In this document: positions 45,030-62,649 of the stretch, piece after piece
How the letters are laid out: each line of letters begins with the position of its first letter
How positions within the stretch are numbered: position 1 is the first letter of the stretch
Source of the DNA: an uncultured Armatimonadetes bacterium
Lineage (GTDB): Bacteria; Armatimonadota; UBA5829; DTJY01
Length of the DNA: 64,000 bases
Assembly: GCA_963717145.1 (NCBI GenBank)
Contig: OY970325.1
Location: forward strand, 4,992,001-5,056,000
Reading direction: 5' to 3'
Notes under the pieces: generated by a model
What the model saw: only the letters and a program-made list of their open reading frames with translations
What the model was told of the DNA's origin: nothing
Databases searched by the model: none
Position numbers and translations under genes: made by a program

Positions 45030-47420
45030 CTATTTCGCGAACAGGGGTCTCGTCACTTTGCCGGACGTGAGATCCAGAACACGTATGCGCTCCAGTGAGT
45101 CTGAGAGATCCACGAAGGCGATCATCCTGCCGTCGCTGTCTATGGCCGGCATGCTCGACGGCACGGCCACCAACTCTCGTGAGTCACTACCATCGAGCTT
45201 CATGGACGCAACATGCGGCTCTCCCGACGATATCGACGTGAACAGGATGCGGTCGCCATCCGGGAAGAAGACCGGCGGACTCGTGCATTCCGCCAGATAG
45301 ACTCCGTACTCTGAGACCACGTCCTCCGAGCGCACGAGACGCTCTGTGCCGGTTTCCAGGCCGACCAGCCAATACTCGATCATCAGCTTTCCCGGCTTAC
45401 TCGCAAGCGCCTGGAAAAGTATCGAGTCTCCCTTCGGCGACCAGGTGCAATCGGATAACGACCATTCGCGCTCATCCTCGGATCTGAGCTGAGTCAGTTG
45501 GCGCTCACCCTCTCCGGCGGTGTCCACCAGCCATATCTGATCGTTTCGGATAAACGCAACCAGGTTGCCCTGAGGCGAGACGGTGGGGAGAAGATCGACC
45601 ACGCCGGGCGGCGCAGGTTTCGCCAGGTTCTCCTGAGGCCCCATCATGCCGAGTCCCGAGTGCGGATTGCCCTCCTCCGCCGGGGGTGGAGCAGCCTCAT
45701 TGGCTGCCACAAGTACGCTCTGAGGGATGAAGCTCAGACTTGCGCTTGCCACGAGGATGCCCGCGGATGCCCGATCGTTCGAGGGTTTGTCTTCGTTGGT
45801 CGAAGGATCGGCCGGCGACGGAGTGGGCTCTGGGGTTGGTGCGGGCGCCTCAGAGGACGGCGCGGGCGCCTCGGGGGTCGGCGCGGGCGCCTCGGGGGTT
45901 GGCGCGGGCGCCTCAGCGGTCGGCGCAGGTGCCTCAGGCTTGGGCTTGTTCGTCAAGAGCCGGTAGCCCTGACCGTCGAGCTTGATGGTTGATACTCCCG
46001 CATCACGGTTCAGCCAGTCAGTGAAGAATACCGAATCGCCGCCGATTCTGGGCTGATCCGCGGCATTCTTGAGGCTCGAGAAAGGCTTCAGCGCCTCTTC
46101 CTCGGTCACGCGTTTGCCGGAATCCACGACAAACAGTCTCCCGGCGAAACCGAGGAGAAGCTTCTTGCCGTCCGGGTACCAGGAGATCGACCGTACAAGA
46201 CCGTTCCCGGGAAGAGCGGCGATCGCCTTCTCGCGGCTGCCTGACTTGGACCCGACGAACAGCTCCGTTGAGTGGTTCACATCTGACTGAAAGGCCAGGC
46301 GCTGGCGATCGGGTGACCACATCGGCATCCAGTATGAACTCCGGCTGCGGTTGAGTCTTTTCAGTCCCGTCCCGGAGGTGCTGCAGATATAGGTCTCGGG
46401 ACTGTAGGAGTCGGATGATGTGCCAGTGAATGCGACGGTCTTCCCATCAGGCGAGAACGATGCCGATGTCGGGTACACGCTGTCGGGAGTTAGGCACTTC
46501 AGGTCTTCGCCTGTCGATGCGACGCTCCACACGGCTGCATGGCTCTTCCTCCCTGCACAGAAGAACAGCCTGCTACTATCCGGTGACCAGGTTATCTTTC
46601 CGCCGTCAAAGGTGCGCACCGCGATGAGTCTGTCGGATCGGGTTTCGAGATCTATCACCTTGATCTTGGACCCACTTATCACGTCGGGCACGGCAAAAGC
46701 AAGATTGCGCCCGTCGGGTGAGTAGGCAGGCGCGCTGCAAAAACCCTTGTAGAGCAGCGTTAGCTCCTTGTCTTTCACCCCGACCGTCCAGATGCTGGCG
46801 CCGGTGGATCTGCCAACCACAAAGGCCAATGTGGATCCGTCCGGTGACCAGGCCCACTCACGCACCCAGAACTTCGTTGTGAGTCCGGTCGTGCCCACTC
46901 CGCCGACGCGTGTGAAAGACAGGTCTCTCGCATTGCCATCCTTGGAAACCGTGGCGAAGGAGACGAGAGAACCATCGAGTGACCAGGATGGGTTACTCGC
47001 GCCGGGTGGCAGGATGGTCAGCGGTGTCTCCTGGTCGGGACCTCCGCTGGGATCTATGGACCAATAGGCCGGACCGCCGCTACGAACGCTCCCGAACACA
47101 ATTGCTTTGCCGTCGCGTGTCCACATCGGGCCGTGCGCTCCTTTGCTCGTGAGTGGCCGAGCGCCGGTTCCGTCGGCTCTCATGACCCAGAGGTTTGGTA
47201 TTCCATGCAGGGAACCCGAGCAGAAAGCGATGCTCGTGCCGTCCGGAGACCAGGCGGCTTCCCATCCCCCGTTTGGGGCCGATAAGCCCGCGCATTCCGA
47301 GAACGCCGGCAATGCCAGTAAGGCGATGACCAGAAAGAACCTCAGGAATCTCGACAAGTTAGCCTCCGGACGATGGAAGGGCAGAGCATTCCCCCGCCAA
47401 TTCGAGCTGACAACTACCAT
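45030..47420 (-). CDS. TolB-like protein with PD40/WD40 beta-propellers and a Pro/Ala-rich linker
   Basis: Many WSPDG repeats; EAPAPT(P/A) tandem repeats at ~45820-45940. Confidence 0.85.
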   Translation of the reverse strand: MVVVSSNWRGNALPFHRPEANLSRFLRFFLVIALLALPAFSECAGLSAPNGGWEAAWSPDGTSIAFCSGSLHGIPNLWVMRADGTGARPLTSKGAHGPMWTRDGKAIVFGSVRSGGPAYWSIDPSGGPDQETPLTILPPGASNPSWSLDGSLVSFATVSKDGNARDLSFTRVGGVGTTGLTTKFWVREWAWSPDGSTLAFVVGRSTGASIWTVGVKDKELTLLYKGFCSAPAYSPDGRNLAFAVPDVISGSKIKVIDLETRSDRLIAVRTFDGGKITWSPDSSRLFFCAGRKSHAAVWSVASTGEDLKCLTPDSVYPTSASFSPDGKTVAFTGTSSDSYSPETYICSTSGTGLKRLNRSRSSYWMPMWSPDRQRLAFQSDVNHSTELFVGSKSGSREKAIAALPGNGLVRSISWYPDGKKLLLGFAGRLFVVDSGKRVTEEEALKPFSSLKNAADQPRIGGDSVFFTDWLNRDAGVSTIKLDGQGYRLLTNKPKPEAPAPTAEAPAPTPEAPAPTPEAPAPSSEAPAPTPEPTPSPADPSTNEDKPSNDRASAGILVASASLSFIPQSVLVAANEAAPPPAEEGNPHSGLGMMGPQENLAKPAPPGVVDLLPTVSPQGNLVAFIRNDQIWLVDTAGEGERQLTQLRSEDEREWSLSDCTWSPKGDSILFQALASKPGKLMIEYWLVGLETGTERLVRSEDVVSEYGVYLAECTSPPVFFPDGDRILFTSISSGEPHVASMKLDGSDSRELVAVPSSMPAIDSDGRMIAFVDLSDSLERIRVLDLTSGKVTRPLFAK

Positions 47421-47434
47421 GACTGCATTATCTC

Positions 47435-48892
47435 CTAGCCCACTGCCTCGCGCAATCGCGCGGCCTCACGCTCGATGACCGCACTGCCCGAACGCGACGA
47501 AGTGGCGACCCTCAGAAGCGTACCACCTGATGAGGGCATGATGCTGGCCCTGACCACAGTCCGGGCCACATAGAAAGAACAGAATACCCCAAGCAGCAAT
47601 ATCGCGAAACCGGCACATACCGCGGGCAACCCCGGGTTGCTTGCCACCTGGAGGCCCGTGTAGCTCACAGCGCTTTCCATGGTGATCCGGAATCCTTTGT
47701 ACTTGGCGGAACCGGAGATTGGTATCCAACCCAGGTTCGACCACGCGTCCTGGCCCTTATACTCCGGAAACCTGTCGTTCACCATGACCTCCGCAGCCGG
47801 GTGAATCGGCATGAAGCTGGCACTGATCTCTTCCCCTCCCACGTAGTCCGGAGCGAAATCGTGGACGAATATGCTGAGCTTCTGCTTGCCGATCTTTATC
47901 TGTCGGGGCTCCTGCTCCGAAACCATGTATAACTTGCCCTCCGGCCCGTTCTTCGTATCGACGCTGATCGGGACTCTCACGGATTCCCCATTCGCCCCGG
48001 TCACGACCAGATAGAAGCCCACGATCCCATAATCCGATTGATAGAAGGACACTCCGCGATAGGTCAGTGGGTGGTCGACGTCGACAACCTTGCCGGCGAC
48101 GAGCTTATCCGCATCATACACCTGCAGATCGCTCTTGTAGGCGGTCGGGTTGTGCTCGTCGTCGTGCTCGATGTAGAACTTCTTCAGTGCGACTCGGAAC
48201 TTGAGGTCCGCCGGTTTTTCCGAACGGCTCGGGAAGTAGCTGTTCGTGGATCGGCCTTCAACGATGGTTGTATAGCCCTCCAAGCCCAGCATACTCCCCA
48301 CCATACCGCCAAGAAAGATCACAAGAACGCTGACATGAGCAAGATATCGGCCCCACAGATTGGCGGTTCCCCTGGCTGCGTAGATCGAGATCTCGTCGCC
48401 CGTCCGCTCTTCACGCACCGAATAGTGCGCCGCGCGAAGCGCCCCCTTGACCTTCTCAGCCGTTTCATCAGTACCGGAGTCAGTCTGGATTGTCTGTGAT
48501 CCCTGCATCTTGCCTACCCGCGCGTGGCCGATCGCGACCTCCGGACGATATGCCTGCTTCCATGTACGGCTGAACCTGTTGATGCTGCACACCGCCAGGT
48601 TCGCTCCGATGAGCAGGATGATCAGTTGATACCAACTCGAGCGGTACAGATCAGTGAAACCGAGTGCTTTGAGGGTGGCGTAACCCCCGGGCCCAAACCG
48701 GGCATAGTCCTCAGGCGAAGCTCCTTGAGGGATGATGGTCCCGATGACCGAGACGGCGGCCAGTAACAGGAGCAACGTCACCGCCGTGCGCATCGAGCTG
48801 AAGGTCGTCCACAATATCTTTCCTAGATTCGTGCCGTCATTCGTATCAACGATATGCTCGGCGGTGTCTTCCGGGGCGAGACGCTCTGACAT
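47435..48892 (-). CDS. resB: Cytochrome c biogenesis protein ResB/Ccs1 (system II)
   Basis: FSSMRTAV.LL...SVIGTIIPQ, DLYRSSWY...CS..R, AHVSVLVI, VDHPLTYRGVSFYQSDY, YTGLQV..NPG. Confidence 0.9.
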   Translation of the reverse strand: MSERLAPEDTAEHIVDTNDGTNLGKILWTTFSSMRTAVTLLLLLAAVSVIGTIIPQGASPEDYARFGPGGYATLKALGFTDLYRSSWYQLIILLIGANLAVCSINRFSRTWKQAYRPEVAIGHARVGKMQGSQTIQTDSGTDETAEKVKGALRAAHYSVREERTGDEISIYAARGTANLWGRYLAHVSVLVIFLGGMVGSMLGLEGYTTIVEGRSTNSYFPSRSEKPADLKFRVALKKFYIEHDDEHNPTAYKSDLQVYDADKLVAGKVVDVDHPLTYRGVSFYQSDYGIVGFYLVVTGANGESVRVPISVDTKNGPEGKLYMVSEQEPRQIKIGKQKLSIFVHDFAPDYVGGEEISASFMPIHPAAEVMVNDRFPEYKGQDAWSNLGWIPISGSAKYKGFRITMESAVSYTGLQVASNPGLPAVCAGFAILLLGVFCSFYVARTVVRASIMPSSGGTLLRVATSSRSGSAVIEREAARLREAVG

Positions 48893-48928
48893 TAGTCCTC
48901 CGATGACTCAGACAAGGCCCGAAACGAT

Positions 48929-49018
48929 TCGTGCAAAAAATCACGTATGTGGCATCAGTGTGGGACATTGCCACATGTGTCACAATGTTATCATAGCTCG
49001 GCGGGGGGTAGATGTCAA
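48929..49018 (-). promoter_or_regulatory. resB promoter with a downstream Rex-like box
   Basis: Minus strand TTGACA(49018-49013)-17 bp-TATGAT(48995-48990); TCGTGCAAAAAATCACGT at 48929-48946. Confidence 0.65.
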
Positions 49019-49108
49019 GAGCAACGACCGGATGTGACACCCCTCACAAAGCCACCCGGCAACGTAAAATCGCCAAAATCTTCGTTGAACATACAGTAAT
49101 TTTACCTG

Positions 49109-49186
49109 TTGACGGGAGGATTTCCGTGTGCTATACTGTCCCAGTATTGTGCAGAATTGCACAATAGTTTGTGCAAGGTTTCACAG
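49109..49186 (+). promoter_or_regulatory. Cytochrome operon promoter followed by tandem Rex-like operators
   Basis: TTGACG(49109)-17 bp-TATACT(49132) with extended TG; TTGTGCAGAATTGCACAA (49147-49164) and TTGTGCAAGGTTTCACAG (49169-49186). Confidence 0.8.
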
Positions 49187-49249
49187 ACTTTGGAGCAAAG
49201 CGCATTCGGATTCGCGCTTCGCTCGCCTTAGGAAGAGGACGTAGTTCAT

Positions 49250-49669
49250 ATGAGAATCAGAGTGCTCATCTTATTGGTCCCATGTTTGGTTTTGGCGATG
49301 ATTCTGGGCCACGGGATACTCTCCGCGCAGGGCGGCAGCGCCTATGGCGGAGTGGAGAACTGCAAGATGTGCCACCCGGACATTTACACCGAATGGTCGA
49401 AGTCCGACCATGCGCGAGGATTCGAACTCCTGACAAACGTCGGCCAGGAGAAGAACGCTGAGTGCCTCCCTTGCCACACCACCGGATACGGTAAGGGCGG
49501 TTACGTGGACGAAGCCACAACCCCCGGATTGAAAGGCACGGCTTGTGAATCGTGTCACGGACCTGGCGCCGGTCATATGGGCGACAAGACCAAGATCACC
49601 AGGAAGCCGCCCGCCGGGACGTGCGAGGGCTGTCATCAGGCGACAAATATCCATTCTGTGACTAAGTAG
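49250..49669 (+). CDS. Small tetraheme cytochrome c (c554-like)
   Basis: Signal peptide; 4 CxxCH (CKMCH, CLPCH, CESCH, CEGCH); YGG.E.C..CH...W..S.H pattern. Confidence 0.9.
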   Translation: MRIRVLILLVPCLVLAMILGHGILSAQGGSAYGGVENCKMCHPDIYTEWSKSDHARGFELLTNVGQEKNAECLPCHTTGYGKGGYVDEATTPGLKGTACESCHGPGAGHMGDKTKITRKPPAGTCEGCHQATNIHSVTK

Positions 49670-49686
49670 GCGCACCGTTACTAGAT

Positions 49687-51111
49687 ATGTCAAGGAAGTT
49701 TGAGACCAAACCAGTTCTGACTCTTATCGCCATCGGGATCTCGCTCCTGGTCGGTGGGATGCTGATCCCGTGGGCAGCGGATGCGCAGAGTGCGCCGCCG
49801 CAACCGCCCACGCCCAAGGCGGAGGTGGTTTCTACCGCGAGGTTCGTCGGTAGCCAGGGATGCCAGACCTGCCACTCGCAGGTCGCGGAACCTTGGTTGG
49901 CCAGTCCGCACGGTCGGGCTCTCACGCAAGAGGGCTTGCCGGAGGAACGGCGAGGCTGCGAGGCCTGTCACGGAGCGGGGAGCGCGCATGTCGGAAGTGC
50001 ATCGGCCAGCAAGATGTCTATTCCGATCGCGGCGGATCCGCCGGCGGCAAACAGCCTGTGCGGATCCTGTCATTTCGATCGCGAGCCGTCAACTGCACCC
50101 GATGCCCCGCACAGCTTATCCAAGGCTGAATGGACACGAAGCGCGCACGCGCGAAAGGATCTGTCCTGCCTGTCATGCCACTCCGGACATCCGAACGCGA
50201 ACGAGAAGGCGCTCGTGAGACCGGCCAAGGACCTGTGCCTGAGTTGCCATGCATCAGTGATGGAGGACGCTCCCGGCAAACCGGCGGCATACACCCATTC
50301 GCCTGTTGCGCAGGGACAGTGTACGTTGTGCCACGATCCGCATGGGGCGGCTGACCGGCGTATGGTGGCGGATGATGTGAATAAGGCGTGCGAAACGTGT
50401 CATGATGCCGGGACTCCCGAGATGGCAGCCGGCCATCAAGGGTTTGCCGTCAAGGGTGCGAAGTGCATTTCCTGCCATGACCCGCATTCACACAAAGCTT
50501 CCGACAAACTCATGCGGACGAAACAGCACATGCCGTTCAAGCAGCGAAACTGCGTGCTCTGTCATGGCAAGCCCGGGGCTGATGGGGCAGCGACTCTGGC
50601 TAAGCCGGCCAAGGAGCTGTGCGTATCCTGCCATCCGACGGGCAGCATCATGAAGGACGGCGAGAAAGCCCATGCTCCGGCGAAGGAGGGGCTTTGCACG
50701 GTATGCCACGACCCGCACGCGTCGAATGCCAAGGGCTTGCAGAAGACTCGTACTGCCTATGCGTGCTTCACCTGCCACAGCAAGGTTGAGATCGATACCC
50801 TATCCGCCCACAAGCATGGGGCGTTCAACAGCAATATGGACTGCACCGGTTGCCACAAGCCGCACAGCTCGCCGCAGGAGAAACTCCTGGTCAAGGCTCA
50901 GGGTGACCTATGCGGGCAGTGCCACAAGCACTCGGGCTCACATCCGATGGGAACCAGGAAAGACGGCACTCCCGTCATCGACCCGAATACCAGCAAGCCG
51001 ATGGTGTGCGCCAGTTGCCATAACCTGCACGGATCGAAATTCGCCATCCTGGCCAAGGCGGACAAAGGCAGAGACCTCTGCCTGCTGTGCCACCAGATGG
51101 AGCACAAGTAG
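49687..51111 (+). CDS. 16-heme cytochrome c (DmsE/MtrA-like N-terminus, paired CxxCH repeats)
   Basis: Signal peptide; 16 CxxCH motifs counted. Confidence 0.9.
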   Translation: MSRKFETKPVLTLIAIGISLLVGGMLIPWAADAQSAPPQPPTPKAEVVSTARFVGSQGCQTCHSQVAEPWLASPHGRALTQEGLPEERRGCEACHGAGSAHVGSASASKMSIPIAADPPAANSLCGSCHFDREPSTAPDAPHSLSKAEWTRSAHARKDLSCLSCHSGHPNANEKALVRPAKDLCLSCHASVMEDAPGKPAAYTHSPVAQGQCTLCHDPHGAADRRMVADDVNKACETCHDAGTPEMAAGHQGFAVKGAKCISCHDPHSHKASDKLMRTKQHMPFKQRNCVLCHGKPGADGAATLAKPAKELCVSCHPTGSIMKDGEKAHAPAKEGLCTVCHDPHASNAKGLQKTRTAYACFTCHSKVEIDTLSAHKHGAFNSNMDCTGCHKPHSSPQEKLLVKAQGDLCGQCHKHSGSHPMGTRKDGTPVIDPNTSKPMVCASCHNLHGSKFAILAKADKGRDLCLLCHQMEHK

Positions 51112-52137
51112 ATGTATCGCACAGCTAAGCTCTTTGCAGCCTCGATAATTTGCGTGATGGCGCTAAGTATACAGGCGAGCGCTGCTCCGGAAAGCAGGAC
51201 ATTCAAGCTCACCTACTCGTACGTAGCCCACGGGTATTCGACCAGTCAGCGGTTCTCAAAGCCGAGCGGTCTCTTCTACGATACGAACCGTGACGAGCTG
51301 TATGTTGCCGACACGGGCAACAACCAGATCGTGATCTTTGATAAGAAGGGGATGCCGACCGCGCGGATCCGGCATAACGTGGAGGTCGCCTCATCGACCG
51401 ACAGAAAGTCACTCCCTGGAGAGCCCAAGAGCATTCTTGTCCGCAAGAACGGCGACATCCTGGTCACGGACAACCTGTGCAACTACGTGGACGTCCTCGA
51501 TTTTCGTGGCCGTTCGCTCGAGAAGATCTGGCCCGCGGACCTGCTCGGCTTGTCCCGAACCAAGGTTCAACCGCGCTGCCTTGCTATCGACGCTGCACAG
51601 AACATCTACGTGAGCGTGACAGGTGCGGCCAGCAGTATCCTGGTTTTCACACCCGAGTTCAAACTCAAGTCCGAGATAGGCCGGATCATAGGAGGCGGTA
51701 CCATGAAATCGGTGACCGGCCTCTGGGTGGACAACAGCGGCAAGGTATATGCCACGTATTCCCAGGGTGAGTGCGTGCGAGTCTACGCGGCGGATGGGAA
51801 GCAGCTTACGAGCTTCGGCGGACACGATGTCGGTTACGAGAACTTCTCCCTGCCGGTCGGTGTCGTGACGGACGCACAGAGCAACATCTGGGTGGTCGAC
51901 ACCCTCAGGCACATCGTCAGCGCGTTCAAGCAGGAGACAACGGACTCCGGTCTCACCGCGACCGTAATCCACGCGCTCGGCGGATACGGCAGCGGGGCCG
52001 GAGAGATGTCATTCCCGACGGCGCTTGCCGGTGACGGATCGAGCAAACTGTTCATACTAGAGGGAGCAGGCGCGAGGCTCCAGGCATTCAGCATAGATTT
52101 CGCGGCGCCCGCCCAGCAGGCGGGTGTGAAAACCTGA
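51112..52137 (+). CDS. NHL-repeat beta-propeller protein
   Basis: FSKPSGL...LYVADTGNNQI; FSLPVGV..D...IWVVDT. Confidence 0.88.
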   Translation: MYRTAKLFAASIICVMALSIQASAAPESRTFKLTYSYVAHGYSTSQRFSKPSGLFYDTNRDELYVADTGNNQIVIFDKKGMPTARIRHNVEVASSTDRKSLPGEPKSILVRKNGDILVTDNLCNYVDVLDFRGRSLEKIWPADLLGLSRTKVQPRCLAIDAAQNIYVSVTGAASSILVFTPEFKLKSEIGRIIGGGTMKSVTGLWVDNSGKVYATYSQGECVRVYAADGKQLTSFGGHDVGYENFSLPVGVVTDAQSNIWVVDTLRHIVSAFKQETTDSGLTATVIHALGGYGSGAGEMSFPTALAGDGSSKLFILEGAGARLQAFSIDFAAPAQQAGVKT

Positions 52138-52263
52138 TGATAGTGGTTTCGCGAGTATCGCGGGGTTGACGCGTGCGGCGAGACTTCTACATAACAGCCG
52201 CCCCTTGTGGCCAACAGCCACGAGGGTGAGGCATGATTAAACGAAAGGGAGGTACACAACCGA

Positions 52264-53328
52264 ATGAAAGTGATGGTAGGGCTTCTAATCACGGCGCTTG
52301 CGTTGTGTGGGGGCGCGGCTCTGGCCGGCGACTATCACAATAGCGCCACCCTGGTCTGCTCCGACTGCCACACGATGCACTACAGCGCTCAGCACGGCTA
52401 TGACGGAGTTACTCCGATCACGCTGGGAGCAGTTGGGCCGAACGAGAACCTGATCAAGGCTCCGACCCGCAATGCTCTGTGCCTGACGTGTCACGACAAT
52501 CAGGCCTATGCTCCGGACGTCTATGCAGCCAATACGGGGTCCCACGTTCGCAACGCAGGCGCTCTGAACAAGCTGGGTGATGCCGGCCTGTACGCTGAGT
52601 ACAAGGGACACACCCTGGGCTCACTTGCGTCCGCTCCCGGCGGCACGTGGGCGCCAACAATTCCGGCAGAGGGAGAGGCAGAGGGTATGACCTGCGGCAG
52701 TTGTCACGGCACGCACGGTTCGACCTACTACCGCAACCTGAAGAACAAGCCGGGCGGTTCAGCCGACAACACCTATGTCACGTATGCGGTCGGCACCAAC
52801 GACCTGACCAAGGATGTCTTCGAGCGCGATGCGACCCTCAACCAGGTCTCGACGCACTACGATGTCGCCAACGTTGACTTCAACGAGCCTGACTCGACGA
52901 AGTCGGCCTATGCCAACTGGTGCAAGAGCTGCCATACCAACTTCCACGGCGTATCCGGTGGAACTGAGGTCGGCGGCGCATCCGGCGGCGACATCAGCAG
53001 CCACTCGACCGGAGTGGAAGGAGTGCCCTGGCACCGACACCCGAGCGCTGACGTGAACATTGGTCAGAACGGCAACTCCAAGCTGACCCAGTACAACCAT
53101 GTCACGCATGTGAACAAGGTCAAGGTCATGAGCAATTCCGGCGACTGGGGCAATACGAGCACCGATGTCACCCCATCGTGCTTCTCCTGCCACAAGTCTC
53201 ACGGAAATCAGAATGCCTTCGGTCTGATTCACATGAGCGGCACCGGAACTCTGAGCGAACAGGGCGACGATGGCGGCGGCAACAACGTGAGAGGTCTCTG
53301 CAGACAGTGCCATTCGCAGGGCACGTAG
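52264..53328 (+). CDS. Hexaheme cytochrome c, OmcS-like paralog 1
   Basis: Signal peptide, strong SD AAAGGGAGG; YH-x6-CSDCHTMH, CLTCH, GH.L, CGSCH..HG...YRNL, WCKSCH, HP, SCFSCHKSHG, LCRQCH. Confidence 0.85.
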   Translation: MKVMVGLLITALALCGGAALAGDYHNSATLVCSDCHTMHYSAQHGYDGVTPITLGAVGPNENLIKAPTRNALCLTCHDNQAYAPDVYAANTGSHVRNAGALNKLGDAGLYAEYKGHTLGSLASAPGGTWAPTIPAEGEAEGMTCGSCHGTHGSTYYRNLKNKPGGSADNTYVTYAVGTNDLTKDVFERDATLNQVSTHYDVANVDFNEPDSTKSAYANWCKSCHTNFHGVSGGTEVGGASGGDISSHSTGVEGVPWHRHPSADVNIGQNGNSKLTQYNHVTHVNKVKVMSNSGDWGNTSTDVTPSCFSCHKSHGNQNAFGLIHMSGTGTLSEQGDDGGGNNVRGLCRQCHSQGT

Positions 53329-53371: not shown

Positions 53372-53459
53372 CCTGTCGAGGCGAGGGATGGATCTCTCGC
53401 CTCGACAGGTTGCCTTGTGAGTAAACGGTTTCCGAGGGGCACCCCTCGGAAGCTGTTTT
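53372..53459 (+). terminator. Two consecutive hairpins after OmcS-like gene 1; the second has a T tract
   Basis: CCTGTCGAGGCGAG...CTCGCCTCGACAGG and AAACGGTTTCCGAGGGG-CA-CCCCTCGGAAGCTGTTTT. Confidence 0.65.
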
Positions 53460-54537: not shown

Positions 54538-54583
54538 AGCCGGTCGCTGCGCAGTTTGCGTAGTTGTTCTCACGAGAACGCCG

Positions 54584-54698
54584 ACCGCTGGTCCTGAGTT
54601 CGCCGGTGAATGACGGCGTGTAACGAAGGACGGCCCTACTGCACCGAGCCGTCCTTCGTTACACGCCGTCATTCACCGGCGAACTCAGGACTAGCGGT
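54584..54698. repeat. Long REPIN-like hairpin, family B copy 2 (inverted relative to copy 1)
   Basis: GTCCTGAGTTCGCCGGTGAATGACGGCGTGTAACGAAGGACGGC-loop-reverse complement. Confidence 0.85.
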
Positions 54699-55115
54699 GG
54701 GGAAAACTGTTGTTCCACCTCGAATCCAGGATCATCCTCTCACTTGGTGCCATTCCAGGCAAAACCTGTCACTTCTACCAGTATCGTTCCAGCCCCTCAC
54801 CGTGGCACATACTATTACCAGGGAATCCCAGGATCGTGGCACATATTGTCAGCCGTAACTAGTGGCAAATGAGGGTATACAACAGTTAGGCTGAAATGCC
54901 CTGAGGCGGTCAGAAACATACGAGGATGGGTAAAATATTCTTGGCGGACTCGACAAGAACTGAAAAACGTGCGATAATGAGTAGTAAGTGGCGGGCGCAT
55001 CCGACAGAACCGGGTGCTGCAAGCCACGGATTTGCCCGTGCTCGAGGGATTCCCCGAGGGCATGCGACAACGCTATCTCATCAACTGGCGAATGAAACTG
55101 GGGTTACGGGGGTTC

Positions 55116-55133
55116 TCGTGAAATATTTCACGA
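55116..55133. promoter_or_regulatory. Rex-like operator upstream of OmcS-like paralog 3
   Basis: Perfect 18-bp palindrome TCGTGAAATATTTCACGA; candidate promoter TCGACA(54950)-17 bp-GATAAT(54973) upstream. Confidence 0.75.
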
Positions 55134-55185
55134 ACCCTTCGAGGCACGGTTCATTCCTGGCGAGAGGTATTTGGGGGGATGGCAT

Positions 55186-56142
55186 ATGTCGAGGTTGTTA
55201 GTACTTATCGAATGTGCGGTCTTGACCGTAGGCATCATGGCGACATGCGGTTCAGCCCAGGCGGCGAACTATCACTTCCGCGATACGCTGATCTGCTCTG
55301 ACTGCCACATCTCGCACGCCAGCGCCAGCCACGGGGACGGAGGCGACGCGGCCTCTTACGGCGAGCCTCCGAATGGTAACCTGCTCAAGTCTTCATCATC
55401 CAGCGACGTGTGTCTGCGCTGCCACGATGGACAGGCCGGTGTGCCTGACGTCGTCGCCGGGGATGTGAACAAGCCGTCTGAGCCATATGATGGACAGGAA
55501 CGGGCGGCCGGCGCCTTCGCCGATGGTACCGCGGACAACTGGAAAGGGCACAACCTGCCCGGACAGGGCAGCGTCGGACCAGGCGGTTGTGACTCCTGTC
55601 ACGAGCCTCATGGGAACACCAGTTACCGCAACCTGCGAACTCTCGACGGTTCTGGAGACGAGTTGGTGGCCTTCGTAAACCCCGCCGCGGCCGCGTTGGA
55701 CAAGTACAGCCGTGCGAACGTGGGCTACGGAGGGAATATCGGAGACAAGCTCTGCGGGGGTTGCCACGGTTTTGGCGCGATATCGAATACTCGTTCTTCG
55801 GGCGGACAGCACTTCAATCGGCACCCCAGCACCAGCAGCGAGGCCGTCATCTCCATGGAATCCGGGCGATCCAGTATCGACCCGATCCACTGGGTTTCCG
55901 GAGAGGGCAGCGGTTTCACGGCGGGCGAACTCGTAGTGCCGCGCGTGCCGTTCGCGGTGAGTTCAGCCACCAGTTACTCCGATGCCAGGACGGTGTCCGC
56001 CGCCAACGAGGTGTCCTGCCTGTCATGCCACAAAGCCCACGGCTCAGTGCACGCATTCGGCATGATCTGGCCGTACGGGAGCGGTGACGGAGCGGCCGGC
56101 GGCTCCGGCTGCAACCAATGCCACAACATCTCCCGCGAGTGA
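55186..56142 (+). CDS. Hexaheme cytochrome c, OmcS-like paralog 3
   Basis: YH-x6-CSDCHISH, CLRCH, GHNL, CDSCHEPHG...YRNL, CGGCH, HP, VSCLSCHKAHG, CNQCH. Confidence 0.85.
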   Translation: MSRLLVLIECAVLTVGIMATCGSAQAANYHFRDTLICSDCHISHASASHGDGGDAASYGEPPNGNLLKSSSSSDVCLRCHDGQAGVPDVVAGDVNKPSEPYDGQERAAGAFADGTADNWKGHNLPGQGSVGPGGCDSCHEPHGNTSYRNLRTLDGSGDELVAFVNPAAAALDKYSRANVGYGGNIGDKLCGGCHGFGAISNTRSSGGQHFNRHPSTSSEAVISMESGRSSIDPIHWVSGEGSGFTAGELVVPRVPFAVSSATSYSDARTVSAANEVSCLSCHKAHGSVHAFGMIWPYGSGDGAAGGSGCNQCHNISRE

Positions 56143-56144
56143 CG

Positions 56145-57279
56145 TTACTTCAGAACGCCCACGATTCCCGTAGCGGTCTGCTCTATCCCACTCTGCAGAT
56201 CCTTCGGGCCGCTGAGGAATACGCCAAACCGACCTACAGCCAAATCCAGGTGGTAGTATCCGAAACCGGATAGCTCCGTGTACGCGGGCAGCGTCTCGAA
56301 GACGGTCTGCTGCTGTCCGGCGTGGTAGGTCTGCAGGAACTTCTCCGCAGTCGCCTTAGTGCGATAGTCCACGAGCCGAACGTCGACAAACTTCCCGCCG
56401 TCGTTGAGCTGATACCGCGTGTCTATCGCATCGTGGAAATGCTTCTTGTACGTGACTTCACCCAGTTTCGCGTTGCCGACATCCTTGAGTAGCACCTTCA
56501 GCTCGGCTTCGCCGTAGGTTGCAGTCTCGTCCAGATATCGAGGCGTCCCACCAGTTGCTCCCTGTTGATGCGCAATGGCAGCGACTTGCGACTCCCCTGA
56601 TGTGTCGTTCTTGACCGGAGCCGTTTCGGTGGCTGTGTTATTGGCCGTGTGCGCGGCAGCCGTGCTTCCGCCCAGGCTCACCAGTATATCCGGCGAGGAT
56701 TTCATCATGGATTTCGCCATTGCGGATACGGCCAGCTTGGAGAGCTTGCCGAGCGAGGAGATTCGGCCGATGTCGAAAACCTTGACGCCCTCCGCTCCCG
56801 TCTTGCTTATGGTGGCGGCCCACATAATATCCGCGGTTCGAGCGTTCACCGAGCCGCGCGCTGAACGAGATCGACGGATACGAGTCAGAGCCGACCCGCA
56901 CCTCGCCATATTCCTCGACTACGCCGATGACATACGCATCCACGTTAAGTGCGGGCTGAAGCTTCTGGCACATCTCCTGCGTTATGCCCTCAGTGATCCG
57001 AACGCTCTGTGCCTGCAGGGCCGAGTAGACCACCCCCGGCTCCACAACATCGAAGCCGCCGGTTGAGAGCAGGTACGTGACAACCGTGTTCGTAAGCACG
57101 CGTCCGGCATCCTGATCCTTGCTGACGTTGTCAAAGGGAAGGACGGCTATCCTTACCCGCTGACCCGCGGGCCTGTTGACGAACACCTGAGTCGAAGGGC
57201 CTCCGTCATTGCACCCGGAGACCAGGGCAAGCACCGAGAATGCCATCAGGGCTTTTACGAGTAGAGAGCTTTTCTTCAT
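56145..57279 (-). CDS. CsgG/GNA1162-like lipoprotein, frameshifted near 56855
   Basis: Lipobox LVSGC; RIAVLPFDN...GGFDVVE...VIG.VEEY...SISFSARL then VNARTADIMWAA in the other frame. Confidence 0.75.
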
Positions 57280-57311
57280 GTTGCACCAATCCTCATGTTC
57301 TGGTTGATTCC

Positions 57312-59027
57312 TCAGAGATATCTAGCATAATACAGGGCAAAATGTCTTTGCCAGTCTATCAGTCCGGTATTCCCACTGTGAAAGTCGTAATATAACTCCA
57401 GCGATGAACGATCCAGGAACGAATGCGATAGACGAAGCACGGATCCTCTTCTCCGCTGGCCAACAAACTGCCAGTTGATCCAATCCCACTGCTTGTCCGA
57501 TTGGAAGTTGTAGTTCAGGCTAAGGTTACTCGCGGGATCGATCTGCCACCTCACGCCCAGCGCCGGTGACAGCGTTTCGGATATGCTCGATCCATTGCTA
57601 ACCTGGTAGGAAAGCCTCAGGTTCAGGCTGAGTTGGTAGTTGGGCATCCACAGAGCGTCGACGTCCACCGCATCCGTGGTCTGTGATACGGGACTGGCGT
57701 CCGCACTGAATGAATCGGTCTGCGAGCGACGATAGGAGGCGCCCATCGACATCCCGCCGGCGGTCCTGGTCCTGAAGGAGATGCCCGCAAAGCTCCCACT
57801 GAACCCCCCGTCCGACCCAATCGTGGACTTGTTTCGTCCATAGTCGAGGCTGATATCCGCGGCACGGCTGAGTGCGCTCTGGAGTGAAACCTGGAGCGAA
57901 TTCTGCGAAGAGCCGGAACTCAGCGCACCGGCGTAATCCGATCTGGACAGCGATGCGTTCAGGACGCTCTGGTCGCTCAACCGAGCGGACACCCCCAGGT
58001 TGCGATTGTTGGAGTCGAAGGAGATGACGCGGCCCAGAGCGTCGGTGATCGACGTCTCCTGTCGCCGATCGGTGTAATCGGCGCTGAGACCCGGCAATAC
58101 CTGTGCTCTCACATTGAGGGAAAGCGCATTATCGCCGGAATTGCTGTTCACTGCGGCTGCTCCCTGGTGGCTGGATTGGTCAGAATACTCCAGGCTCGCA
58201 GCGATCGCCCTGGTGGGGGTCGCCTGGAGTCGGAGGACCTGGCGCTTCGTATCCATTCTGGAGTTGCCCTCGGCGCGCTCATTGTCCGTCGCGTAGTTGC
58301 TCAGTTCGCCAAAGAGGGTGAGTCCCTGCAGCAGAGTCTGATTCAGGAAGACCGACGATCTCCGAGTCATCTGCGTATTCCCGGAGGATCCGCTGTACGC
58401 CGATGTCTGCCTTGACTGGTCGAAGGTGAATCGGAGCGGCATCAGGTCGTAGTAGGAACCGAGCAGCCAGGTGTTCGAGGCGTAGCTGGACGCCGAATCC
58501 CCGAAGGAGCTGCCGGACACATTTCGCGAGTACTGCAGGTTCAGGACGGGATATGCCGGTTGCGAGATAAGCATGCTGAGGTTATAGTTGGACGAATTTC
58601 CGATCGACGTGCCGCCCTGGCCGAGTGTTTCGCTCTGATAGTCGTTGCGGTTCACTCTGCCCATCAGGGTGTAGCTGGGTTGGCGGTAATACAGGTTGAT
58701 CCCCAGGCTTCTGTTGTCCTGACTGCCGAACTGGTCGTTCGTGGAGGATGTACCGAGCGTTACATCGCTTATCAGGGCGGAGAAGGGCATAACAGGCCCG
58801 CGCATGGCAAGGCTGTAGTTCGTCGAAAGATGACCGTCACCATTCGGCGATTCCCCCGCTTTCTTGTTCTCGAAGAAGTCGTATCGCATCTGTACCTGCA
58901 GACCCAGAGTTTGCGCACCCGTGCATTCATGTGACTGCGCGAGTAAGACCAGTGCAATCAAGAGCGTCAACAGTATCATCGGTGCGCCGTAACCGCCAAT
59001 GTTCGCGGTATTCGCGTATTCTGACAT
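57312..59027 (-). CDS. Putative outer-membrane beta-barrel protein (start uncertain)
   Basis: Signal-like N-terminus; Ser/Asn/Tyr-rich alternating beta-strands throughout; ends FALYYARYL. Confidence 0.65.
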   Translation of the reverse strand: MSEYANTANIGGYGAPMILLTLLIALVLLAQSHECTGAQTLGLQVQMRYDFFENKKAGESPNGDGHLSTNYSLAMRGPVMPFSALISDVTLGTSSTNDQFGSQDNRSLGINLYYRQPSYTLMGRVNRNDYQSETLGQGGTSIGNSSNYNLSMLISQPAYPVLNLQYSRNVSGSSFGDSASSYASNTWLLGSYYDLMPLRFTFDQSRQTSAYSGSSGNTQMTRRSSVFLNQTLLQGLTLFGELSNYATDNERAEGNSRMDTKRQVLRLQATPTRAIAASLEYSDQSSHQGAAAVNSNSGDNALSLNVRAQVLPGLSADYTDRRQETSITDALGRVISFDSNNRNLGVSARLSDQSVLNASLSRSDYAGALSSGSSQNSLQVSLQSALSRAADISLDYGRNKSTIGSDGGFSGSFAGISFRTRTAGGMSMGASYRRSQTDSFSADASPVSQTTDAVDVDALWMPNYQLSLNLRLSYQVSNGSSISETLSPALGVRWQIDPASNLSLNYNFQSDKQWDWINWQFVGQRRRGSVLRLSHSFLDRSSLELYYDFHSGNTGLIDWQRHFALYYARYL

Positions 59028-59041
59028 ATCGATTATCAGTC

Positions 59042-60505
59042 TCAGTGACATCCCGAGGTGGTAGCGCAACTGTTCTCGGAGTACGCTCCACCGTTGGCAT
59101 GAGTGTAGGACGTGATTCCCTGTCCTCCCGCCAGATAATAAGGCGGACCGTCACTCACGTATACAATGAGGTGTCTCCGTTTGAACCCATGCGGCACGGC
59201 GGAGTGACACTGGAAACACCCGGCCCGCGCATGCTCTGACTTGCGATGGAGATTGTCACTCCCTTTGCGGAAATTCGTCCGGTTCGCGTCGCCTCCGCCC
59301 TGCCCATACGTGCTCCAGTCATGGCAGACGAAGCACAGATCGGACTGGGTGCCGGTCCTCCCGGTGTTATCGGAAGCGCCCGCCACCGCCTTGAAGCGCC
59401 TCTTGAGCGAGTAGTTGAATTGCGATCCATGAGGGCCCTGTGCGCTTCCGGGACTCGAGTCACTCGCGTGACAGTCGGTGCAGGCCATTGCGGAGTTCGG
59501 CCCCCACGGGCTGACATAAGCAGGCGGATTCGCTGACCCGAACACGACATCATCGGTAGGGACAGATGAAGCCGTTTGACCCGTAACATTGTGATAGGCC
59601 GGATTGCCGGGGCTGAACTCCAGCCCCTGGTCCGTTTCGCGTGTCCCGTCAGTCGTGTAGGGCGCAACACTCCCCCATGACCAGGAGGAGTGGCACTTGA
59701 GACAGAGATAGTACTCGTGCTCCGTCGCCGTGGACTGGAACTGCTCGACCGCATAACTGGTCGGCGCCGTCCATGGAGCAGTTGAGAAGGTCGGTCTGAC
59801 ACCCCAGGAGCCCAGAAGCATCTCGCCGATATTCGAAGACTGGGGCGCTCGCAGGCCCGACTTGGCGAAGTGCGTGTTATGGCAGTCCACGCATTCCACA
59901 TGACGGTTCGATCCGCTGAGAAGCGGGTTCGGATTCACGGCGACCGATGCACCCTCCGCGGTACTATCGTGCTTGCCGCGCTGATTGGCGACTCGATGGG
60001 AATAAGCTCTGTTCATCTGCGTCTGAATGTCGATGGCGCCCGTCGGCCTGAAACCCGTTCCATGGCACGTGAAACATGTCTCCTCTTCGGTCCGGCCGGT
60101 CATGTGGGGATATGCGCCTGTGAGATCGCCCGAGCCGTGCGGATTGTGGCACTGCGTACAAGAGCCGACGGGCTTGCTGTTCATGCTGGAAGCCGAAGCC
60201 GAGTGGCCGCTCATGTTATATTGCGTCTGCCCGTAGTATGAGCGCAGACTCCCCGTGTGGCAGGTGTAGCAGAGATCGTTGTTGTTCGCTGTCCACAGCC
60301 CGAAATCCTGGTTGGCCGTTCCATGGCCCACGTGACATTGGGCGCAACTGCCCTTCGGAAGAGACGTATCGCGCTGCACGCCGGATATGGCGCTTCCATG
60401 AGGCGTGCGAGTGTAGTATCCGCCATCTGCTTCGGCGCGCAGAGTCAGGCCGACGAGGATGAGAGGCATGATCGCTGCCCATGCTATCCGGAGATATGCG
60501 CTCAA
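59042..60505 (-). CDS. Multiheme cytochrome c (9 CxxCH plus a terminal CX5CH); start uncertain
   Basis: CAQCH, CYTCH, CTQCH, CFTCH, CVDCH, CLKCH, CTDCH, CFVCH, CFQCH, CATTSGCH. Confidence 0.88.
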   Translation of the reverse strand: MSAYLRIAWAAIMPLILVGLTLRAEADGGYYTRTPHGSAISGVQRDTSLPKGSCAQCHVGHGTANQDFGLWTANNNDLCYTCHTGSLRSYYGQTQYNMSGHSASASSMNSKPVGSCTQCHNPHGSGDLTGAYPHMTGRTEEETCFTCHGTGFRPTGAIDIQTQMNRAYSHRVANQRGKHDSTAEGASVAVNPNPLLSGSNRHVECVDCHNTHFAKSGLRAPQSSNIGEMLLGSWGVRPTFSTAPWTAPTSYAVEQFQSTATEHEYYLCLKCHSSWSWGSVAPYTTDGTRETDQGLEFSPGNPAYHNVTGQTASSVPTDDVVFGSANPPAYVSPWGPNSAMACTDCHASDSSPGSAQGPHGSQFNYSLKRRFKAVAGASDNTGRTGTQSDLCFVCHDWSTYGQGGGDANRTNFRKGSDNLHRKSEHARAGCFQCHSAVPHGFKRRHLIVYVSDGPPYYLAGGQGITSYTHANGGAYSENSCATTSGCH

Positions 60506-60519
60506 ATGACTATCGCATC

Positions 60520-61542
60520 CTACTTGAAGTGGCATTGCTGGCACCCCGAGATCGTGTCCGCCCCGCTTTCGATGTAAGGCCAGACCATACCATACTTGTA
60601 CTTACTCCCGTGAGCCTTGTGGCACGAAAGGCAAGTCACGGTGTCTCCGACGCCGCCGGTCGTGTTGCTTCCCAGTTGGCTGCCGTACCTGAGTCTCGGC
60701 ACGCCCAGGGCCGAGTCGCCGATATCACCGCCGAAGCCCGTGTAGTCGCCGGGCGTTCCCAATTGCCAGTTCGTGGCGTCTGCGTGGGGGTATGCTCCGC
60801 CGATCTCGACGTTGCTCGGGTGACCCTTGAAGTGGGCAGGGGCGCTCCCCGCAGAATTCTCTGACAGCGCATCGTGACAGTCCGCGCACCAGGAGCTGAT
60901 GTTGTTCTGTGCGTAGAATGCCACGTTTGACGCGTTATAGGCTACAGACGGATTCGGATTCACGATATCAACAGGCGTGGTTTCCTTGATCTGCGTGCCG
61001 ATGAGAATGTCCCACGAGCCCGGATGCCTGGGATTCGGATCCGATATGAGATTCCGGTAGTTCGGGGCGCCGTGAGTATCATGGCAGTCCGAGCAGAGCA
61101 GCCCGCCGGCTTTCGTGTAGGTGCTCGACAGTGGAGCCGTGACTGAGACGGTGGGGCTCACGTCGTGGCCATAGGGATTCGCCGCACCGATAAAGTCGCC
61201 CTGAAAGAAGCCGGCGCTGGATCCGTACTTGCTGTCGTAGGAGTTCGAAACGACATTCGTCGGGCTCGCGGATGTACCGGTCGAGACGATGTCGGGCGCT
61301 CGGGAATCCGTGCCATTGTGACAACTCATACAGAGCCCTATCTGGCCCATGGAGTTCTTCAGCAGATGCTCGGTCGGCGTCAATACCTCGCCCTGGCTGC
61401 TGGCGTGCTGGGTGTGGCAGTCCGAGCAGATGCTCTCGGTGACGTGATGATACTCCCCCGACATTGTGTTCCGAGGAAGAAGCAGGCATACGCCTGCGAC
61501 TGCGACTATGGCGGCTATCAGCCTCTTGGTCTGGAAACGCAT
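60520..61542 (-). CDS. Hexaheme cytochrome c, OmcS-like paralog 4
   Basis: YH-x6-CSDCHTQH, CMSCH, AG.F...GH, CSDCHDTHG...YRNL, SSWCADCH, HP, VTCLSCHKAHGS, CQQCH. Confidence 0.85.
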   Translation of the reverse strand: MRFQTKRLIAAIVAVAGVCLLLPRNTMSGEYHHVTESICSDCHTQHASSQGEVLTPTEHLLKNSMGQIGLCMSCHNGTDSRAPDIVSTGTSASPTNVVSNSYDSKYGSSAGFFQGDFIGAANPYGHDVSPTVSVTAPLSSTYTKAGGLLCSDCHDTHGAPNYRNLISDPNPRHPGSWDILIGTQIKETTPVDIVNPNPSVAYNASNVAFYAQNNISSWCADCHDALSENSAGSAPAHFKGHPSNVEIGGAYPHADATNWQLGTPGDYTGFGGDIGDSALGVPRLRYGSQLGSNTTGGVGDTVTCLSCHKAHGSKYKYGMVWPYIESGADTISGCQQCHFK

Positions 61543-61570
61543 AAACTGACCCTGCTTCACGCGCACACTC

Positions 61571-61649
61571 TGTCATTCTGAGCGAAGTGAAGAATCCGGC
61601 TGATCGAGCAAGGCGACTCGCTGGATTCTTCACTTCGCTCAGAATGACA
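61571..61649. repeat. REP/REPIN-like palindrome, family A copy 2
   Basis: TGTCATTCTGAGCGAAGTGAAGAATCC...GGATTCTTCACTTCGCTCAGAATGACA. Confidence 0.85.
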
Positions 61650-61662
61650 CGTATAATCCGGG

Positions 61663-62649
61663 TTAGAGCCCGGCCGGTCTGAACGGTTCGAAGGGCCGGG
61701 CAAGAGCGAAAACCTGCATCCTGCGGGATCCTGACTCCAGGACGATCACGTGCCCGAAGCTGTCTATATCAGCATCGACAGGGTAGAAGAGCATGCCTTC
61801 GCCCAAGCCGTAGTTGCCGAATCTCCGAAGGAACATGCCGGTCCTGTCAAATACCTTCAGCCCGTGCTGCGCCCTGTCCACAATCCAAATCTGGTCATTC
61901 CGATCCAGGAACATTGCGGTCGGAAACGCCAGATCCTGCTCAGCCTCGCCGTGCAGGCCGAACCGGTACAGGTACTTTCCGTTCCGGTCGAACACCTGGA
62001 TCGGAGGCCCAATGGAATCGAGCACGTATATTCGGCCCTGGCGGTCTACGGCCACATCCTGGAGCATCTTGAACTTATACTGGTCCGACTCGAGAGCCGC
62101 AATGCGGAATCTGATCTTTCTCTGTTTGTCAAACACGCATATCTCGTTGTTGGCCCTATCCACAACATACAGGTTGCCATCCCGGTCGAAGGTCATTCTC
62201 CCGGGCTTGGGCTGCTCATTGCCCTCAACGGCAGGGAGTTCGAGAGTGGTCAGCTCTTCCTTCGCGCCGATGATCTTTATCGGCCCACCCTCGTTCTCGG
62301 CGACGTACACGTCGCCTTTGGAGTCAACTGCCACCGCCAGGGGGGACTTCAGGCCTTGCTTCGGCCCGTATCGGAATCTCGGTATGCCCTGCCGGCTGAA
62401 CGCGTCCAGCGTTCCCGTCTTGACGTCTGACACGTATATCAGCCCTGATCGCTCATTCAGGGCCAGCGAAGCGGGGTCGCCAAACCAGCTCTTGCCATCA
62501 TAGCCATTGACCGCGTAACGGAATGTGAAGTCCTGTTCCGCCTGGTCAAAGACGGCAGCGCGCGAGATGCCGTCTGTGAATGCACAACAGAACAAAACGA
62601 CGACTGCGAGAAGCACTTTCAGAGCCACAACCAACCTGGCTAACCTCAT
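61663..62649 (-). CDS. NHL-repeat beta-propeller protein
   Basis: PLAVAVDSKGDVYVAE, QDVAVDRQGRIYVLD, FG..G.GEG...YP. Confidence 0.9.
   Translation of the reverse strand: MRLARLVVALKVLLAVVVLFCCAFTDGISRAAVFDQAEQDFTFRYAVNGYDGKSWFGDPASLALNERSGLIYVSDVKTGTLDAFSRQGIPRFRYGPKQGLKSPLAVAVDSKGDVYVAENEGGPIKIIGAKEELTTLELPAVEGNEQPKPGRMTFDRDGNLYVVDRANNEICVFDKQRKIRFRIAALESDQYKFKMLQDVAVDRQGRIYVLDSIGPPIQVFDRNGKYLYRFGLHGEAEQDLAFPTAMFLDRNDQIWIVDRAQHGLKVFDRTGMFLRRFGNYGLGEGMLFYPVDADIDSFGHVIVLESGSRRMQVFALARPFEPFRPAGL

Follow-up and report, generated by a model that had tools for sequence, protein, structure and literature searches.

The closest described relatives of the system considered here are found in Geobacter sulfurreducens, where the hexaheme cytochrome OmcS is encoded with a set of companion genes. 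In the osc operon, OscH has been proposed to act in the folding of OmcS, OscE, OscF and OscG in its secretion and OscD in morphology (PMC13194489), and an eight-gene block, GSU2500-GSU2493 (PMC12977616), encodes a YVTN propeller, a 725-residue hypothetical protein, lipoproteins of 199 and 392 residues, a 572-residue hypothetical protein, a 26-heme and a 16-heme cytochrome and an NHL protein (PMC3495685). Ideas on the secretion and anchoring of cytochrome nanowires are described as speculative to date (PMC12307469). Here we examine a cytochrome locus at positions 45030 to 62649 of a 64,000-nucleotide stretch of DNA (the window) from an uncultured Armatimonadota bacterium (GCA_963717145.1, contig OY970325.1, positions 4,992,001 to 5,056,000). 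The locus is a divergent variant of the Geobacter osc-type cluster in an uncultured, presumably sugar-degrading member of that phylum. Systems of this kind are known from Geobacter; new here are the host phylum and a nine-heme cytochrome, c9, that in relatives is fused to a hexaheme or to a barrel.

A divergent osc-type locus

The components on which the comparison turns are as follows.

49687..51111, plus strand: 16-heme cytochrome c16 (16 CxxCH), with an MtrA/DmsE-like N-terminal half; counterpart of GSU2494 by heme number
52264..53328, plus strand: OmcS-family hexaheme H1, of the main clade and a candidate for the filament subunit (6 CxxCH, profile, model, 12 ligand histidines)
53491..54537, plus strand: OmcS-family hexaheme H2, same clade as H1 (6 CxxCH; 52% identical to H1)
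55186..56142, plus strand: OmcS-family hexaheme H3, the shortest, grouping with 7-heme forms (6 CxxCH; A2 profile E 1e-28)
56145..57279, minus strand: lipoprotein with an N-domain of PelC/LpoB/CsgG fold and a C-terminal domain; frame switch near 56850
57312..58979, minus strand: outer-membrane beta-barrel, predicted to have 28 strands, without a plug or a Pfam family (AlphaFold2 (AF2) model, predicted local distance difference test (pLDDT) 94; MtrB nearest)
59042..60544, minus strand: 9-heme cytochrome c9, candidate hexaheme-barrel adaptor (9 CxxCH; fusions in relatives; predicted complex with H4)
60520..61542, minus strand: OmcS-family hexaheme H4, own clade (6 CxxCH; clade profile against OmcS E 1.2e-16)

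What the window shares with the osc cluster of G. sulfurreducens (GSU2505-GSU2493) is several OmcS-family hexahemes, one or more NHL proteins, a 16-heme cytochrome, one or more lipoproteins and a large hypothetical protein. A preliminary description of the DNA had proposed such a likeness, and the Geobacter gene table bears it out, in that hexaheme paralogs, an NHL protein and a 16-heme cytochrome stand together there. The differences are also clear: the locus lacks the 26-heme cytochrome (GSU2495), the YVTN propeller and the peptidyl-prolyl isomerase (PPIase)-type gene of the osc cluster, has one lipoprotein rather than two, and adds a 4-heme cytochrome (c4), the 9-heme c9, a TolB-type propeller and ResB, the whole being divided into three units through rearrangement. 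Much of the correspondence runs through a related Acidobacteriota locus, L047, whose parts are sized like those of the Geobacter block, with a PPIase at the position of the 572-residue protein, and which shares its barrel, lipoprotein, hexaheme and 16-heme families with the window; the window barrel and the PelC-fold lipoprotein are tentatively tied to GSU2499-GSU2497, by size and order, through L047 alone. The YVTN proteins of L047 and L077 and their PPIase-type proteins at the 572-residue position found no tblastn match in the host genome, which has the TolB-type propeller instead; three other rotamase genes lie elsewhere in that genome. The 25/26-heme proteins of L047, L072 and L077 match c16 and a 10-heme gene, not the genome's other 26-heme gene, and fused 42-heme forms occur in other phyla.

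The layout of the locus is as first described. Seven c-type cytochromes, with 4, 16, 6, 6, 6, 9 and 6 CxxCH motifs counted in their open reading frames (ORFs), stand at the places claimed and hold 53 of the 340 such motifs in the whole genome (about 6.0 million six-frame residues), far above chance. Two cytochrome-bearing units converge at 56142/56145, a junction spanned by contigs of close relatives from two studies, and the resB-tolB unit diverges from the 4-heme gene; two NHL propellers, the PD40/TolB-type propeller and ResB all score above Pfam cut-offs. The window is part of one 5.37 Mb contig (98% complete).

A compact subfamily of OmcS-type hexahemes

The four hexahemes had been taken to be of the OmcS type, and both the sequence profiles and the modelled fold of H1 agree: each finds OmcS as its only significant match. 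Profile A2, which comprises H1, H2 and 119 of the 120 homologs listed (897 found), matches OmcS (6EF8) in the PDB with E 3.6e-14, the sole match below E 0.6 among the 12 listed. A 16-row profile of the H4 group matches OmcS with E 1.2e-16 and aligns all distal histidines, pairing the positions designated H2, H16, GH, HG, RHP and HA. The AlphaFold model of H1 (pLDDT 86), on which the fold was assessed, has the OmcS fold: Foldseek aligns it with 6EF8 at E 5.9e-5 and a template-modelling (TM) score of 0.38, the one significant match of the three listed, and in a comparison with 48,161 chains by VIA-align OmcS scores Z 11.7 (251 residues aligned, root-mean-square deviation (rmsd) 4.1), the next chain scoring Z 4.8.

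The resemblance extends to the heme ligands. In OmcS there are 12 histidine ligands, one of which is supplied by the neighbouring subunit (PMC6584659). All four paralogs keep twelve heme-ligand histidines, among them the six distal positions, which are also kept in 119 of 120 listed homologs and in 46 of 64 tested rows, the misses including 7-heme forms that the test framed wrongly. The window proteins therefore share with OmcS (GSU2504; 6EF8, 6NEF) six CxxCH motifs in order, six distal histidine positions and the predicted fold, but differ from it in the length of the mature chains (about 290-330 residues against 407) and are about 22% identical to it in structural alignment. Mature H1 (332 residues) and H4 (312 residues) both fall outside the range of 10% around the length of OmcS that is used in PMC12977616. 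Because the chains are much shorter than OmcS, the locus hexahemes are members of a compact OmcS subfamily (897 proteins at E<=0.001) and not OmcS orthologs, and since a plain single-sequence search does not link this subfamily to OmcS, genome surveys may miss it. We take the N-terminal His16 to be the ligand that OmcS donates to the next subunit; all four paralogs keep a histidine at this position. Filament formation by the locus hexahemes is plausible.

In a quick, preliminary tree, made without an outgroup or Geobacter rows and used only for grouping the paralogs, H1 and H2 belong to a large clade in which the lone hexaheme of Eisenbacteria, Acidobacteriota and other groups is also placed, H4 has a separate clade and H3 goes with 7-heme forms; pairs other than H1 and H2 are 25-31% identical. 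H4 lies directly upstream of c9 in several Armatimonadota clusters. In one relative (L121, L128), four recently duplicated H1-type genes are without the RHP histidine motif.

The nine-heme cytochrome c9 as a candidate anchor

No close solved relative of c9 was found in a PDB search, and an ESM Atlas search returned generic multiheme clusters only. Its relatives include fusions to both of its proposed neighbours. On the barrel side, a single protein of 1724-1736 residues with nine hemes and an immunoglobulin (Ig)-like middle replaces c9 and the barrel in L125:4800-9974 and L116:5521-10731, the middle of the L125 protein containing three Big_1 stretches, and L067:14206-19395 has the same c9-Ig-barrel architecture as two genes. 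When compared by hhalign, the N-terminal part of the fusion matches the c9 profile with probability (P) 99.7 over 358 columns, whereas three unrelated multihemes used as controls align to c9 over 78-106 columns only; the C-terminal part matches the barrel profile with P 96.4 over 433 columns, against P 2.1 for the genome's MtrB-like porin as a control. In some Armatimonadota the base of the proposed wire would be one autotransporter-like protein composed of a 9-heme head, an Ig stalk and a barrel. On the hexaheme side, an OmcS-type module is fused with a 6-heme partner in L053, L070, P0258 and P0252, and the family of this partner matches c9 with P 99.8.

A reading of the 12-heme proteins and P0252 as doubled OmcS was rejected, the second part being of the c6/c9 family. 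P0252 (1879 residues, 24-heme) has an OmcS-type module and a c6/c9-type module followed by 12 more heme motifs and non-heme domains. A tenth, atypical heme at the C-terminus of c9 was likewise rejected; it is not conserved as such, and relatives have a normal CxxCH there.

The modelled complex of H4 with c9 has an interface score (ipSAE) of 0.63 (runs 0.63, 0.53 and 0.68), against 0.00 for the best of three controls, and passes a mark that is reached by 116 of 157 solved complexes and by 2 of 215 mismatched pairs. Contacts agree between runs in at least 79%, and the partners have pLDDT values of at least 81. On the H4 side, the predicted interface lies at the C-terminal end and comprises residues 295-312, which include the sixth heme motif, together with residues 210-213; on the c9 side it lies at the N-terminus (residues 1-6 and 22-43, with the first CxxCHxxH). 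Thus c9 is predicted to cap H4 at its C-terminal end. The polarity of this model is that of the hexaheme-partner fusions, and presumably also that of the OmcS filament. Taken with the fusions, it suggests that c9 may join the wire to the outer-membrane pore.

Barrel, 16-heme cytochrome and lipoprotein

An outer-membrane barrel had been proposed for the locus, and the AF2 model supports a large one of 28 strands, its top structural match being MtrB (6r2q_B; Foldseek E 5.8e-10; structural alignment Z 21.2 with 382 residues aligned and rmsd 7.2, the next match at Z 19.0). Likewise, the best PDB match of c16 is the MtrA chain of the same structure (6r2q_A, E 3.7e-14), and c16 also matches TIGR03508 with E 2e-50, below cut-off. 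In these two matches the locus resembles MtrCAB (6R2Q), but its barrel differs in having 28 predicted strands and no match to the Pfam MtrB_PioB family. MtrB has 26 strands. None of 51 members of the barrel family matches PF11854 (MtrB/PioB), nor does the genome's own MtrB-like porin match the barrel profile (P 2.4 or less). Six Armatimonadota barrels match 45 barrels of other related loci with P 99.1, and an ESM Atlas search with the barrel returned unnamed clusters from Eisenbacteria and Acidobacteriota.

The preliminary description also named a CsgG-like lipoprotein; the lipoprotein gene is present, but its nearest solved relatives are PelC-type and not CsgG. A profile of the N-domain family (71 rows) finds PelC-type chains in the PDB, among them the ring lipoprotein PelC (9H80), with E 1e-14 to 1e-12, and no CsgG chain is listed; 5T10, 5T11 and 5T0Z we take to be PelC relatives. 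Pfam matches among the 71 members are to LpoB (43), CsgG (29, at E<=0.01) and GNA1162 (28), and the window lipoprotein half scores E 0.095 against PF03783, below cut-off. Unlike PelC, the window lipoprotein has an extra C-terminal domain, which is found in Armatimonadota relatives only, and no exopolysaccharide genes stand at the locus.

Distribution and host

We infer the placement of the host in Armatimonadota, which had been suggested before, from the named hexaheme homologs, which include several Armatimonadota, and from loci in kin genomes that are the same as, or sister to, Armatimonadota ones. A scan of GTDB genomes gave 204 confirmed matches, and the counts of related loci refer to the best 79 of these, which come from Eisenbacteria, Krumholzibacteria, Acidobacteriota, Zixibacteria, Nitrospinota and others. 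Among these 79 the barrel is found in 65, the lipoprotein in 63 and a c9-family gene in 54, counts that derive from profiles partly built from the same loci and from many loci that end early. The synteny of related loci shows a gene set conserved across phyla. The usual order in Armatimonadota is c4, c16, NHL, one to three H1-type genes, TolB, NHL, H4, c9, barrel and lipoprotein, sometimes with ResB and CcsA, and the window has the identical gene set rearranged into three units; in loci of other phyla there are two lipoproteins, and either a 42-heme gene or distinct genes for the 26-heme and 16-heme proteins.

Within the phylum, the hexaheme family occurs in 13 of 401 sampled genomes, a result unchanged when all candidates in the sample were scored, and in none of 10 from the host's own family; a stand-alone barrel occurs in 10 of the 401, all of them among the 13. 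Recent horizontal transfer was considered and set aside, the GC content at third codon positions (0.68-0.76, genome median 0.77) showing no compositional sign of it, though the distribution is patchy.

Electron-transfer genes elsewhere in the genome

The idea that the locus forms a self-contained module did not hold, as ResB stands there without CcsA and without an inner-membrane quinol oxidase. CcsA is encoded only at C1:4115245 and 4118149, about 0.9 Mb from the locus and beside hemA. The surrounding region (C1:4115239-4119978, L135) holds the two ccsA genes, hemA and a 7-heme cytochrome between insertion sequences. A second set of genes, at C1:3934963-3947503 (L129:6963-19503, minus strand), comprises 9- and 11-heme cytochromes, two cytochromes b561, a 26-heme cytochrome with a NapC-like start, a 10-heme cytochrome, an MtrB/PioB porin and a 1067-residue protein of no Pfam family; this cluster probably serves both to feed in electrons by quinol oxidation and as a second conduit. 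The genome yielded no cytochrome bd, and the COX1 family is represented by one gene, whose single frame (785 residues) presumably encodes a quinol-dependent nitric oxide reductase. Glycoside-hydrolase-like genes lie within the window, and we infer that the host is an anaerobic sugar degrader that dumps electrons outside the cell.

Proposed function and alternatives

On balance, the locus probably encodes an osc-like system for the maturation and export of OmcS-family cytochromes and their display at the surface, serving electron transfer across the outer membrane, although we put this forward with considerable reserve. In such a system, all the cytochromes would be exported through Sec and would receive heme from ResB and the CcsA encoded elsewhere, as the biochemistry of system II suggests. 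Electrons would leave the quinone pool through a complex elsewhere, most likely that of the cluster at C1:3.93-3.95 Mb, and would then be relayed through the periplasm by c4 and the MtrA-like c16 to the 28-strand barrel, which may sit on a ring of PelC-type lipoproteins, an assembly that the predicted folds would permit. Tied to the barrel, as in the natural fusions, c9 would dock its N-terminal CxxCHxxH on the heme-5/6 end of an OmcS-type subunit in the manner of the next filament subunit, which is where the predicted interface lies. H4 would be the first subunit, and H1 and H2, perhaps also H3, whose ligands are conserved, would extend the chain head to tail. The likely purpose would be an electron sink for an anaerobic polysaccharide degrader. 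A more specific proposal, which we regard as possible and offer tentatively, is a heteropolymeric, polar nanowire with a dedicated base, in which the barrel holds or exports c9, the N-terminus of c9 imitates an OmcS subunit and covers H4 at its heme-5/6 end, and H1 and H2 (and H3) grow outward from there.

The same parts could be arranged in other ways. As proposed for the osc system of Geobacter, the barrel and lipoprotein ring might serve to export folded hexahemes, which would polymerise and be charged by periplasmic cytochromes, the barrel being no conduit and c9 being cargo or tip. In favour of this, OmcS secretion is said to require OscE, OscF and OscG (PMC13194489), no plug is seen in the barrel model, and the nearest relative of the lipoprotein is PelC, of which 9H80 contains 12 chains; an MtrAB-type conduit is, moreover, encoded separately in the genome, so that this barrel does not have to serve as one. 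We nonetheless think export as the sole role rather unlikely, given that the c9-barrel fusions tie c9 permanently to the barrel, that the barrel finds MtrB as its best structural match and c16 an MtrA chain as its best sequence match, and that omcS alone is reported to have given OmcS filaments in Shewanella (bioRxiv 2023.10.26.564108). It is also conceivable, if improbable, that there are no long wires and that an outer-membrane reductase of fixed length is made up of the barrel, c16 and c9 with one hexaheme or a few, with the paralogs as alternative terminal units for different acceptors. The hexaheme-partner fusions imply that a fixed segment is one way in which the module can work, only one hexaheme is present in most loci outside Armatimonadota, and most OmcS paralogs are without a demonstrated filament (PMC12977616). 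However, all four paralogs retain the head-to-tail motif at both of its ends, and H1-type genes occur in one to three tandem copies, a number that varies between relatives, whereas c9 and the barrel are each present in single copy.

Several observations weigh against an osc-like display system, and against c9 as its anchor. Single-sequence phmmer searches of the PDB with H1 and H4 gave no match at E<=1, the TM score of the H1 model indicates a modest structural agreement with OmcS, and the locus hexahemes are 75-115 residues shorter than OmcS. The osc-like character of the locus is suggested by way of L047 as a bridge, OmcS being the only Geobacter Osc sequence compared directly. Furthermore, among the four G. 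sulfurreducens OmcS paralogs wire formation is known for OmcS alone (PMC12977616), and Fe(III) oxide reduction persisted after deletion of the filament cytochromes (PMC11077965). With respect to the anchor, the fused barrel parts as single sequences give a moderate match (P 76 and 93), and the H4-c9 model was made without hemes and with H4 as the only hexaheme tried, so that it shows no preference over H1-H3; its score may also arise from likeness to the solved OmcS-OmcS interface. The CxxCHxxH motif is, moreover, common in multiheme cytochromes.

Also to be counted here is the frame switch that splits the lipoprotein gene into an N-terminal half in ORF 56638-57279 and a C-terminal half in ORF 56145-56909. 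Were it real, export would be dead and the locus decaying in this strain, as might fit the lack of the cluster in 10 of 10 same-family genomes searched. We consider this highly improbable. All other genes of the locus are open and full length, both lipoprotein halves lie in one ORF (about 370-390 residues) in 7 related genomes (duplicates counted once), and contigs from runs X1, X2 and X4, which represent a roughly 95% identical strain and come from one sample, each lack one base relative to the window across intervals containing the site. Other ordinary genes of the assembly are also split between frames (a second resB, a dehydrogenase E1 region and cysD/cysN), although a rough frame test found more than one frame in only 2 of 32 matched loci, the lipoprotein gene being one of them. 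The likeliest explanation of the frameshift is an assembly error.

Relation to the literature

A literature search pairing OmcS with Armatimonadota names found no paper, although Armatimonadota or this architecture may already appear in figures or supplements of Shen et al. 2025, and one pairing OmcS with Eisenbacteria found no paper linking the two. Metagenome-assembled genomes of Armatimonadota are reported to encode MtoA, Cyc2 and large multihemes (PMC9671151), and multihemes of unknown function are reported in PMC11788075, which came from a search on Armatimonadota and extracellular electron transfer; OmcS is not named in the excerpts of either paper. The excerpts of PMC12954529, PMC11936953 and PMC10599522 hold nothing specific to this system. 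OmcS homologs are reported to be widespread (PMC10954620), and because an osc-type system is both described already and widespread, the degree of surprise is moderate.

With this locus the range of OmcS-type systems is extended to Armatimonadota, and c9 can be named as a candidate anchor. The host together with the c9 adaptor, which has relatives fused on either side and a complex model that passes, renders the open question of anchoring testable, and the predicted interface lends itself to a test with two purified proteins. If the anchor model is true, an OmcS-type wire would have a concrete, testable place of anchoring and electron entry, in a phylum without shown electroactivity. Because the Geobacter block has no 9-heme gene, the model is not directly transferable to Geobacter.

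Accessory genes, intergenic elements and neighbours

The remaining features of the locus are listed below.

45030..47420, minus strand: exported TolB/PD40-type double beta-propeller with a Pro-rich linker (Pfam PD40 E 1.5e-37; TIGR02800 below cut-off)
47435..48892, minus strand: ResB/CcsB of system II cytochrome c maturation (PF05140 E 4e-80)
48893..49249, no strand: intergenic region between divergent units, where sigma-70-like sites occur on each strand (3 matches to the consensus, 0.6 expected; no evidence of function)
49250..49669, plus strand: tetraheme c554-like periplasmic cytochrome c4 (4 CxxCH; PF13435 E 7e-15)
51112..52137, plus strand: NHL-repeat beta-propeller 1 (PF01436); upstream of a hexaheme in nearly all related loci
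54581..54701, no strand: palindromic repeat with 54-nt arms, found about 100 times genome-wide; filler between genes that is not system-specific, with a depth spike and loose ends
61571..61649, no strand: REP (repetitive extragenic palindromic)-like palindrome with 30-nt arms, at about 50 places in the genome
61663..62649, minus strand: NHL-repeat beta-propeller 2 (PF01436 E 4e-23; 23% identical to propeller 1)

A TolB-type propeller is part of the cluster only in Armatimonadota relatives, where its homologs are 28-44% identical, and c4 is the first gene of its unit in the same relatives. ResB is followed by CcsA inside the cluster in L111. Far from the locus, at C1:142723-145163 (L131:7724-10164), there is a second NHL and resB pair, whose resB is frame-split. 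The tetraheme c4 is also similar to UshA-like selenoproteins in their C-terminal heme domain (NF041198, with E 7e-29, which is below cut-off). A sigma-54-type pattern has one match, at chance level, and an Rfam scan of the window gave no families and no known riboswitch; a pair of short hairpins lies at 53372-53458, between H1 and H2.

A functional link to the FdhF-like neighbour (62787 onward) was considered and rejected, as this gene starts a divergent operon and no related locus has an Fdh match. The operon itself, which runs through window positions 62787-64000 and L130:788-16367, is formate-hydrogenlyase-like, with FdhF-like and AsrA/B-like proteins, group 4 hydrogenase subunits and HypB. 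On the other side, positions 36138-44780 of the window hold sulfur-assimilation genes, among them cysD/cysN in shifted frames, O-acetylhomoserine sulfhydrylase and MoeB, together with a fusion of a sulfite/nitrite reductase with TusA, and a double-cubane-cluster reductase that scores above the NCBIfam cut-off.

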